A DNA stretch of 64,000 nt from Escherichia coli (GTDB taxonomy: Bacteria; Pseudomonadota; Gammaproteobacteria; Enterobacterales; Enterobacteriaceae): assembly GCF_030013595.1 (NCBI RefSeq), contig NZ_CP122768.1. One strand, written 5' to 3'. The notes under the pieces are model-generated. The model saw only the letters and a program-made list of their open reading frames with translations. It did no database searches and was not told the DNA's origin. The translations under genes and the position numbers were made by a program. This document shows, in pieces, positions 63,463 to 64,000 of the stretch. Every line of letters begins with the position of its first letter. Position 1 is the first letter of the stretch.

Positions 63463-63640
63463 CTTCAGAATCCTTCCAGATAAATAGCTCTCCCCTTCTC
63501 AGGGTCCATCCCTCTTATCCCTGCGCGCTACTTAAGAGCCTCGATTCTAGCCGTGAAGACATACCGATCAACAGCAATAAGCCATCTGAATAACAAAATT
63601 AGCCACCCACACCAGTACAGGCAGACGGAAAAAACTCACT

Positions 63641-63681
63641 GAAAAAAAACAAAAAACCCGCCGAAGCGAGTTTAGTGCGGG
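63641..63681 (-). terminator. structured 3' end/terminator of hok mRNA
   Basis: GC hairpin followed on the minus strand by TTTTTTGTTTTTTTT. Confidence 0.4.
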
Positions 63682-63740
63682 TGCGTTGAGGATGCCTGAC
63701 ACATCAGAGGTGGCGAGGGATTTCTCCCCCGCCGGGTCTC

Positions 63741-63896
63741 TTACTCCTCAGGTTCGTAAGCTGTGAAGACAGCGACCTCCGTCTGGCCGGTTCGGATTCG
63801 TACCTCGCAGAGGTCTTTCCTCGTTACCAGTGCCGTCACTATGACGGTTAAACAGATGACGATCAGGGCGACTAACATCGCCTTTTGCTGCTTCAT
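63741..63896 (-). CDS. Hok-family toxin (HokD/RelF-like) in prophage
   Basis: 51-aa product MKQQKAMLVALIVICLTVIVTALVTRKDLCEVRIRTGQTEVAVFTAYEPEE, differing at one residue from the recalled K-12 HokD; upstream in-frame extension corresponds to the mok leader. Confidence 0.85.
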   Translation of the reverse strand: MKQQKAMLVALIVICLTVIVTALVTRKDLCEVRIRTGQTEVAVFTAYEPEE

Positions 63897-64000
63897 AGCC
63901 TGCTTCTCCTTGCCTTTCGGCACGTAAGAGGCTAACATCCATGTGTCTAGCATGAAATTGGCCTAAGTTTAATATTAAACGTCTTGCGGGACGCGTAATG

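Follow-up and report, generated by a model that had tools for sequence, protein, structure and literature searches.

A hok/mok/sok module of the hokW type in a Rac-like prophage of porcine Escherichia coli

A short toxin gene annotated as hokD in a prophage of Escherichia coli raises the question of whether it is a leaderless remnant, as hokD (relF) of strain K-12 is, or whether it belongs to a complete hok/mok/sok type I toxin–antitoxin module under the control of its own antisense RNA. We examined this gene in a 64,000-nucleotide (nt) stretch of contig NZ_CP122768.1 (assembly GCF_030013595.1), referred to here as the window. An initial annotation, made from the letters alone, had placed a Hok-family toxin of a prophage at 63463–64000, at the very end of the window. 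The gene lies on the minus strand, and "upstream" therefore means higher coordinates. Our analysis makes it highly probable that the locus is a complete hok/mok/sok module of the hokW or "intact hokD" subfamily, carried by a defective Rac-like prophage of ~24 kb at ttcA in porcine E. coli, which, where active, would act through the mechanism described for its relatives; its identity as a hok/mok/sok module is near certain. The Pfam match of the peptide, the Rfam score of the leader in its full context, homology to SokW and the prophage genes on either side all bear out the original assignment.

Coding frames, leader and antisense gene

The window ends within the module. We therefore read the sequence past its end from an identical locus in NZ_CP122652.1 (L001, in which a coordinate equals the window position minus 57199). 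The frames, leader and antisense gene are placed as follows.

63741–63896, minus strand: hok coding sequence (CDS), 51 amino acids (aa) plus stop codon, peptide MKQQKAMLVALIVICLTVIVTALVTRKDLCEVRIRTGQTEVAVFTAYEPEE, from the list of open reading frames (ORFs) and Pfam.
63741–63953, minus strand: mok frame, 70 aa, in frame with hok, with its ATG at 63953 and 19 additional N-terminal residues MLDTWMLASYVPKGKEKQA.
63906–63911, minus strand: hok Shine-Dalgarno (SD) sequence AAGGAG, read from the sequence, where homology to K-12 hokD begins.
63897–64000, minus strand: hok mRNA leader, its 3′ part; the first 64 nt, tac among them, fall outside the window, at L001 6802–6865.
63910–63938, plus strand: sok promoter, with –35 TTGCCT at 63910–63915, a 17-nt spacer and –10 TAACAT at 63933–63938, from homology to SokW.
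63945–64000, plus strand: first 56 of the ~70 nt of the Sok antisense RNA, which continues to window-equivalent 64014 (L001 6815), placed from the SokW misc_RNA of AF125520.

The Hok peptide matches the Pfam family PF01848 (HOK_GEF) over the whole model (positions 1–42 of 42; E 1.7e-23; 82.3 bits, with the cut-off at 22). Its sequence contains a hydrophobic stretch at residues 7–24 and the conserved Cys30, and by these features the 51-aa ORF is the small Hok/Gef membrane peptide characteristic of the hok/mok/sok family. It agrees with K-12 HokD at 50 of 51 positions, the difference being I9V (the initial annotation had likewise given one residue), and with HokW of phage 933W at 46 of 51 (90%); in six IMG/VR loci the peptide is identical. 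RefSeq lists the product as WP_000813269.1, "type I toxin-antitoxin system toxin HokD", and the NCBI Prokaryotic Genome Annotation Pipeline (PGAP) names the gene hokD.

The in-frame mok-like leader noted at the outset corresponds to the 70-aa frame from 63953, whose start and stop match those of the annotated mokW of 933W (L003 2628–2840, with hokW at 2685–2840). Disruption of the frames had been named as a result that would speak against the assignment, and both are intact in the full-length context. The mok frame thus keeps a mokW-like geometry but has UAGG as its SD in place of the GAGG of the family, and its coupling to hok translation is predicted by analogy with the characterised systems.

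The conserved fold of the leader was detected with the Rfam model RF01794. Inside the window the match reaches 39.4 bits, under the gathering score of 59, because the window end cuts the leader; in the full context it rises to 97.6 bits (L001 6692–6865, hok strand), and a conserved leader fold of this family is accordingly present by the model's own threshold. The antisense gene was placed through homology to the annotated SokW, whose promoter has been probed by mutation: the –10 of sok coincides with the block replaced in the promoter-less sokW construct of Takada et al. (primer YO-421; PMC8621323). This homology points to an antisense Sok with its own promoter across the mok initiation region. 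Sok is predicted to fold (–21.6 kcal/mol, z –3.15) into a long hairpin preceded by a 15-nt 5′ tail and followed by a U-tail. The hok –10, TAAAAT, lies beyond the window at L001 6872–6877; a consensus promoter scan listed neither the sok nor the hok promoter, and both were located through homology. The initial annotation expected Sok and its promoter near or beyond the window end and proposed a search upstream into the adjoining sequence. That search recovers both by homology to SokW, and the expected nearness holds; the promoter itself, however, lies inside the window, and what falls outside is the last ~14 nt of Sok together with 64 nt at the 5′ end of the hok mRNA (with tac) and the hok promoter.

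These upstream elements bear directly on whether the locus could be a K-12-type hokD, that is, a leaderless remnant expressed only from an upstream operon, of which it is the final gene, and free of antisense control. Such a reading could draw on the PGAP product name, on the single-residue difference from K-12 HokD and on the presence of relE directly upstream in 3 of 80 IMG/VR loci. No relBE precedes hok here, however; in its place come a complete leader of 168 nt, 230 bp of AT-rich spacer and a three-gene cluster that is unrelated, and RF01794 scores above threshold. The extended sequence contains no match to relE, so that the K-12 relBEF arrangement, with relE directly upstream, is not encountered. 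A relBE–hokD operon is ruled out by the alignment with K-12, in which homology is lost upstream of the hok SD, and we regard a K-12-type remnant as extremely improbable.

The window contains one further hok locus, as originally claimed, and both copies match HOK_GEF in full; a tblastn search of the window with both Hok peptides returned no third copy.

268–419 (leader) and 414–563 (CDS), plus strand: hokB, from Pfam, Rfam and the PGAP name hokB in matching genomes.
63755–63758, minus strand: TACG motif at Tyr47 of Hok (GCT TAC GAA, the A at 63757), a candidate site of TadA A-to-I editing, Tyr to Cys, from a codon check.

The hokB CDS matches HOK_GEF at 1.1e-23 and its leader matches RF01794 at 109.7 bits. 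In K-12 hokD, TadA edits the homologous TAC within the same motif (PMC5630033). Codon 47 of the window hok carries the TACG motif typical of TadA-edited hok mRNAs and is a candidate for editing on that ground. HokB likewise has a Tyr TAC within TACG (498–501, plus strand; Y29), and both sites correspond to positions reported as edited in K-12.

Fold of the hok mRNA and its variable Sok target

To place the locus among its relatives, we collected 80 IMG/VR loci whose Hok is at least 96% identical; 63 distinct full-length mRNAs from this set were aligned with those of 933W, the Rac phage of E. coli 442/2 and the window locus (66 sequences, alignment A3). The structural elements of the hok mRNA are the following.

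63928–63966, minus strand: Sok-target hairpin with a CUAG loop of the YUNR type, enclosing both the SD and the AUG of mok; it varies more than any other part of the family.
63924–63930, minus strand: CUCUUAC box, pairing over a long range with GUAAGAG at 63738–63744 across the hok stop codon in the minimum free energy (MFE) fold.
63712–63733, minus strand: GC-rich hairpin of the 3′ untranslated region (UTR), GGCGGGGGAGAAAUCCCUCGCC, nine pairs, kept among the relatives, with G-U/A-U/G-C variation at one pair.
63679–63691, minus strand: fold-back inhibitory (fbi) box, CCUCAACGCACCC, whose complement is the 5′ end of the mRNA, from the MFE fold and RNAalifold.
63645–63673, minus strand: intrinsic terminator of the hok mRNA, with its stem at 63654–63673 and a U-tract to ~63645, from a terminator scan (L001 6474–6455).

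The predicted hok mRNA runs from L001 6865 to 6452 (414 nt) and folds with an MFE of –159.7 kcal/mol, against –124.5 ± 6.7 for shuffled sequences (z –5.29). In this fold the 5′ end of the mRNA, GUGUGCUUGAGG, pairs with CCUCAACGCAC near the 3′ end, the classical tac–fbi closure. RNAalifold recovers the same helix as a consensus, kept in 64 to 66 of the 66 sequences; being nearly invariant, it offers conservation and no covariation. In the register of the family, the window locus has one U:C mismatch in this helix. Compensatory changes are found at four pairs outside tac–fbi, and all seven pairs of the CUCUUAC/GUAAGAG helix are present in every sequence.

The structured 3′ end described initially resolves into the GC-rich hairpin, the fbi box and the terminator hairpin with its U-tract. 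By analogy with the R1 model (PMC9841398), the GC-rich hairpin is likely to be the protective terminal hairpin of the processed mRNA. Rfam also gave weak matches for isrK (27 bits, where the threshold is 50) and for rsmX (23 bits) within the hok 3′ UTR, which were rejected as resemblance to a hairpin followed by a terminator. The module fills only part of the span first assigned to it, for 63463–63650 lies beyond the terminator and holds a spacer and the promoter-like site of the next gene.

Variation among the relatives is concentrated in 20–30 nt over the 5′ tail of Sok and the target hairpin (63934–63962 in the window, A3 columns 111–140). Pairwise diversity in this patch is 0.287, compared with 0.196 in the adjacent stretch of the sok transcription start and –10, 0.04–0.12 in other non-coding parts and 0.019 at third codon positions of hok; because the loci were chosen by Hok identity, diversity at codon positions 1 and 2 is necessarily lowered. 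The patch occurs in 14–18 sequence types. All 18 variants fold into the same hairpin, and about two thirds carry a YUNR loop motif. One could see in it a diversifying specificity cassette that sets "antidote types", much as loop changes do in plasmid incompatibility groups. We think this unlikely. In a second IMG/VR sample, the expectation that co-resident copies avoid a shared type was not supported: 7 of 13 within-genome pairs had the same type, against 11% between genomes, although some within-genome pairs may be assembly duplicates. Relaxed constraint combined with recombination is the simpler reading of the diversity.

Activity of this copy and its role in the prophage

The mechanism that we propose is modelled step by step on plasmid R1 and hokW. 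A stable hok mRNA of ~414 nt would be made and, through pairing of its 5′ tac with the 3′ fbi, would be closed and untranslatable until slow trimming at the 3′ end opened it. Sok, ~70 nt long and transcribed from an opposite-strand promoter inside mok/hok, would pair with the hairpin that holds the mok ribosome-binding site and start codon, block translation of mok and hence the coupled translation of hok, and mark the duplex for RNase III. If Sok transcription stopped, for which prophage loss, induction and shut-off by an infecting phage are possible triggers, the short-lived Sok would decay, Mok and Hok would be translated, and the 51-aa peptide would enter the inner membrane and collapse the membrane potential. 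In R1, the corresponding steps are tac–fbi closure, 3′ processing, pairing of Sok with the region where mok translation starts and cleavage by RNase III, and membrane depolarisation by Hok (PMC9841398). The hokW gene is toxic and sokW neutralises it, and the two form a working toxin–antitoxin pair of type I, which assists Sp5-mediated lysis after induction (PMC8621323).

Several observations weigh against a complete and working module. RF01794 bears the Rfam name "sok" but aligns to the hok-sense strand and stops at the AUG of hok, as its matches at 268–419 (plus), L001 6692–6865 (minus) and L087 232–403 (plus) demonstrate; the match thus documents the leader, which includes the complement of Sok, and not transcription of Sok. 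The sok promoter agrees with the consensus at 8 of 12 positions and was missed by the consensus scan, whose threshold is 9 of 12. Several chromosomal hok loci could not bring about post-segregational killing in earlier work cited by a recent survey (bioRxiv 10.1101/2025.08.07.668861). The remaining points are regulatory changes. Three of them the window lineage has in common, among the 66 aligned sequences, only with the IMG/VR locus L007. The first affects the mok SD:

63962–63965, minus strand: mok SD, UAGG in place of the GAGG of 64 of the 66 relatives, through a G-to-U change at 63965 (A3 column 108).

The change is found in 2 of 66 sequences. At the same place, position 85 of the Rfam model, hokB and R1-type hok have a conserved G and the window locus a U; the equivalent substitution in R1, G105T, is a loss-of-function suppressor that abolishes toxicity (PMC9841398). 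The second change, G2 to U in tac (L001 6864), creates the U:C mismatch of the tac–fbi helix. The third is the loss of one C from the GCCCC box (L001 ~6810), the counterpart of the AGCCCC anti-SD (ucb) of R1. In addition to these three, the hok –35 of the family (TTTGCG/TTGGCG) gives way to AT-rich sequence of unrelated origin from about –27 on, with only the –10 TAAAAT retained. The mok SD, tac and –35 changes may lower toxin output.

The main rival to a fully active copy is accordingly one that is structurally complete but attenuated or silent, decaying in a cryptic prophage, in which Sok may persist and Hok is hardly translated. This alternative concerns activity only and is compatible with the identity of the module, so that the weight given to it is not to be set off against that of the module itself; we consider it a serious though somewhat less probable account. 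Besides the lineage-private mok SD, its R1 equivalent (established through Rfam alignments) and the replaced –35 region, it is favoured by a weaker target hairpin (–9.9 kcal/mol, against –10.3 to –14.7 in the other variants), by the truncation and several pseudogenes of the prophage, and by insertion sequence (IS) insertions and relE fusions that reveal decay within the family. It has to contend, on the other hand, with two intact frames and a Hok identical to that of six IMG/VR loci, with an AGG that remains 8 nt upstream of the mok AUG, with the strong AAGGAG of hok itself, with the retention of tac, fbi, terminator and sok promoter, and with the complete identity of the locus over 801 nt in at least seven complete genomes. 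We put full activity of the window copy at about even. As a natural allele of pig enterotoxigenic E. coli (ETEC) and oedema-disease strains, the combination of UAGG, tac G2U and a lost –35 can be compared with its GAGG relatives, and such a comparison would show how far mok translation sets Hok output outside plasmid R1.

The element that carries the module was traced in the same genomes. Positions 63200–64000 are 100% identical over 801 nt in at least seven complete porcine E. coli genomes, the chromosomes being those of the O139:H1 strains W13-16 and P15-25 and of ETEC4075, 4090, 6333, 6334 and 6335. In the downstream direction of the hok strand come a 57-aa Rem-like ORF, genes for DUF1367, DUF1364/YbcO and a Q-like DUF1133 protein, an ADP-ribosyltransferase/AB5 pair, a holin gene and terminase genes. 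Upstream, the 230-bp AT-rich spacer is followed by a three-gene cluster, Rac-type ydaV/ydaT, and then kilR, recE/recT, ralR, xisR and intR beside ttcA; at its other boundary, the element stops before uspF/ompN. The element is Rac-like, occupies the ttcA site over ~24 kb and contains a partial small terminase gene and several pseudogenes. No head or tail genes occur from the terminase region to uspF, and for this reason we call the prophage defective. The host element is thus a defective Rac-like prophage with hok in its nin-side accessory region, and the nin-side placement proposed initially agrees with DUF1367, YbcO/DUF1364 and Q-like DUF1133 downstream and with ydaV/ydaT, recET, intR and ttcA beyond the window.

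What the module does in such an element is a separate matter. In Sp5, treatment with mitomycin C is followed by the disappearance of sokW RNA and the accumulation of HokW in the inner membrane, and phage release is halved without the locus (PMC8621323). On this precedent, and given that the window locus is 92% identical in DNA to hokW-sokW, the module might mainly serve the lytic programme through lysis and release on induction, as proposed for Sp5, instead of maintenance or defence. The ~24-kb element fits this poorly. Its small terminase gene is partial, and between the terminase region and uspF it lacks genes for head and tail; it is unable to release virions alone, and a benefit to release therefore cannot be what maintains the locus now. 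We judge a mainly lytic role improbable. Because the prophage is without head and tail genes, selfish stabilisation of the element is the most probable role of the module here, with abortive infection a possible one, rather than phage release.

The neighbouring genes offer further observations. Over its first 31 residues, the Rem-like ORF (63289–63462, minus strand) is 52% identical to the Rem protein in a Rac phage record; part of the ORF is annotated by PGAP as a partial pseudogene, and a promoter-like site lies upstream of it at 63571–63544 (TTGATC, 16 nt, TAGAAT). Directly upstream of hok, the cargo cluster (L001 7095–9052, window-equivalent 64294–66251, minus strand) encodes proteins of 376 aa (HATPase-like, ATP-binding), 104 aa (DUF4325, STAS-like) and 172 aa, the last with no Pfam family found. 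The idea that hok adjoins a known defence system was dropped, as the three cargo genes have no PADLOC match; the cluster may be an uncharacterised accessory or defence module. The same prophage carries ralR, a second type I toxin gene, and kilR (L086 13214–13408 and 8123–8344), and so has at least two type I toxin genes.

At 60195–61413 (L001 2996–4214, minus strand), RefSeq annotates a "scabin-related ADP-ribosyltransferase" and a "subtilase family AB5 toxin binding subunit", by annotation a pertussis/ArtAB-like AB5 toxin pair; it lies downstream of the Q-like antiterminator gene, where Shiga toxin (Stx) phages carry stx. Beside the terminase genes, 55953–57389 (record 2705759–2707195) encodes a 478-aa "anti-CBASS protein Acb1 family protein", followed at the prophage end next to uspF by a truncated gene and a DUF4376 gene. 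An IS1 copy is located at ~51318–52015, between nifJ/ydbK and ompN. Other RNA-family matches above the gathering score in the window are STnc490 (17933–18056, minus strand), MicC (28216–28331, minus strand), RydC (969–1032, plus strand) and sRNA-Xcc1 (38469–38552, plus strand).

Comparison with known systems

The module is one already known: it belongs to a common family, RefSeq annotates it as hokD, and hokW-sokW has been validated experimentally. Of 5426 complete E. coli genomes, 3886 contain the 183-nt leader at ~86% identity or more, at up to seven places per genome, and 105 phage records contain the whole locus, among them 933W, VT2-Sakai, mEp460, Tritos and the Rac phage record; a recent survey of 2026 likewise reports hok to be enriched in prophages (bioRxiv 10.1101/2025.08.07.668861). 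Roughly 70 of the 80 IMG/VR loci keep the full leader, three have relE upstream and three an insertion of ~1.1 kb between leader and hok. Decay and rearrangement in these other prophages (L020, L037, L040 and L025, L029, L065) take the form of such ~1.1 kb insertions and of relE fusions as in K-12, and in L011 a partial second leader stands directly upstream of the first. As a discovery the locus matters little, since hok/sok in lambdoid prophages has been annotated since the 933W genome and was tested experimentally in 2021.

A close relative by peptide is hokD (relF) of K-12, the third gene of relBEF in the Qin prophage. In addition to 50 of 51 residues, the two loci have a nearly identical 3′ UTR with fbi and terminator and the same downstream neighbours (a rem-like ORF, then a DUF1367 gene). 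Homology extends only from the hok SD on (AGGAGAAGCAGGCTATG); upstream of it, K-12 has the end of relE where the window locus has a full leader. In K-12, relE occupies the place of tac, ucb, mok start, Sok target and sok promoter, leaving hokD without antisense control, whereas the window locus has all of these elements. Since homology with K-12 starts only at the hok SD, the alignment identifies the window locus as the intact form, and K-12 hokD/relF as a truncated remnant, of a complete prophage module. The locus in this way shows K-12 hokD to be a truncated derivative, with the homology break exactly at the hok ribosome-binding site. It also carries a warning for annotation: the name "HokD" hides the regulatory context, the Rfam name "sok" hides the hok-sense strand, and strand calls need care.

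The hokW-mokW-sokW module of 933W and the Sakai prophage Sp5 (AF125520) contains the same parts in the same order, namely tac, an in-frame mok, a ~70-nt Sok across the mok start, and fbi. Both modules reside in lambdoid prophages, and their DNA is 92.4% identical over 92% of the window locus. HokW differs at I9 and in its C-terminal tail (VDYESEK against TAYEPEE). In regulation, 933W has GAGG as its mok SD, a 5′ end of GGGUGC and a –35 of TTTGCG; in the window locus the corresponding sequences are UAGG and GUGUGC, and a –35 cannot be recognised. Beyond fbi the 933W copy diverges and lacks the same terminator; it lies near the genome end, whereas the window locus sits in the nin region.

The "Escherichia phage Rac" of E. 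coli 442/2 (MN652886) belongs to the same prophage family, with a DNA identity of 91.5% and the same gene order (ydaV-ydaW-...-mok/hok-rem-DUF1367-DUF1364-Q), and differs in its upstream cargo genes. Its mok SD is GAGG, and a 1-nt insertion (AAAGGTCAAGG) puts its mok out of frame with hok. This indel (A3 column 162; L004 3129–3342), AAAGG-CAAGG against AAAGGTCAAGG, toggles the mok frame across the family: the window locus and 933W have the in-frame state, Rac 442/2 and many relatives the out-of-frame one.

Plasmid R1 hok/mok/sok (parB) matches the same Rfam model, an R1-type copy scoring 87.2 bits against 97.6 for the window locus. HokW, the 90%-identical relative of the window Hok, is 44% identical to R1 Hok (PMC8621323). 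Common to R1 and the window locus are closure by tac–fbi, the position of the mok SD in a hairpin and of the Sok promoter within mok/hok, and a terminal hairpin at the 3′ end. In R1, mok is out of frame with hok, whereas in the window locus it is in frame. The window Sok differs further from that of R1 by an extra internal hairpin of ~16 nt, and its carrier is a chromosomal prophage, not a plasmid.

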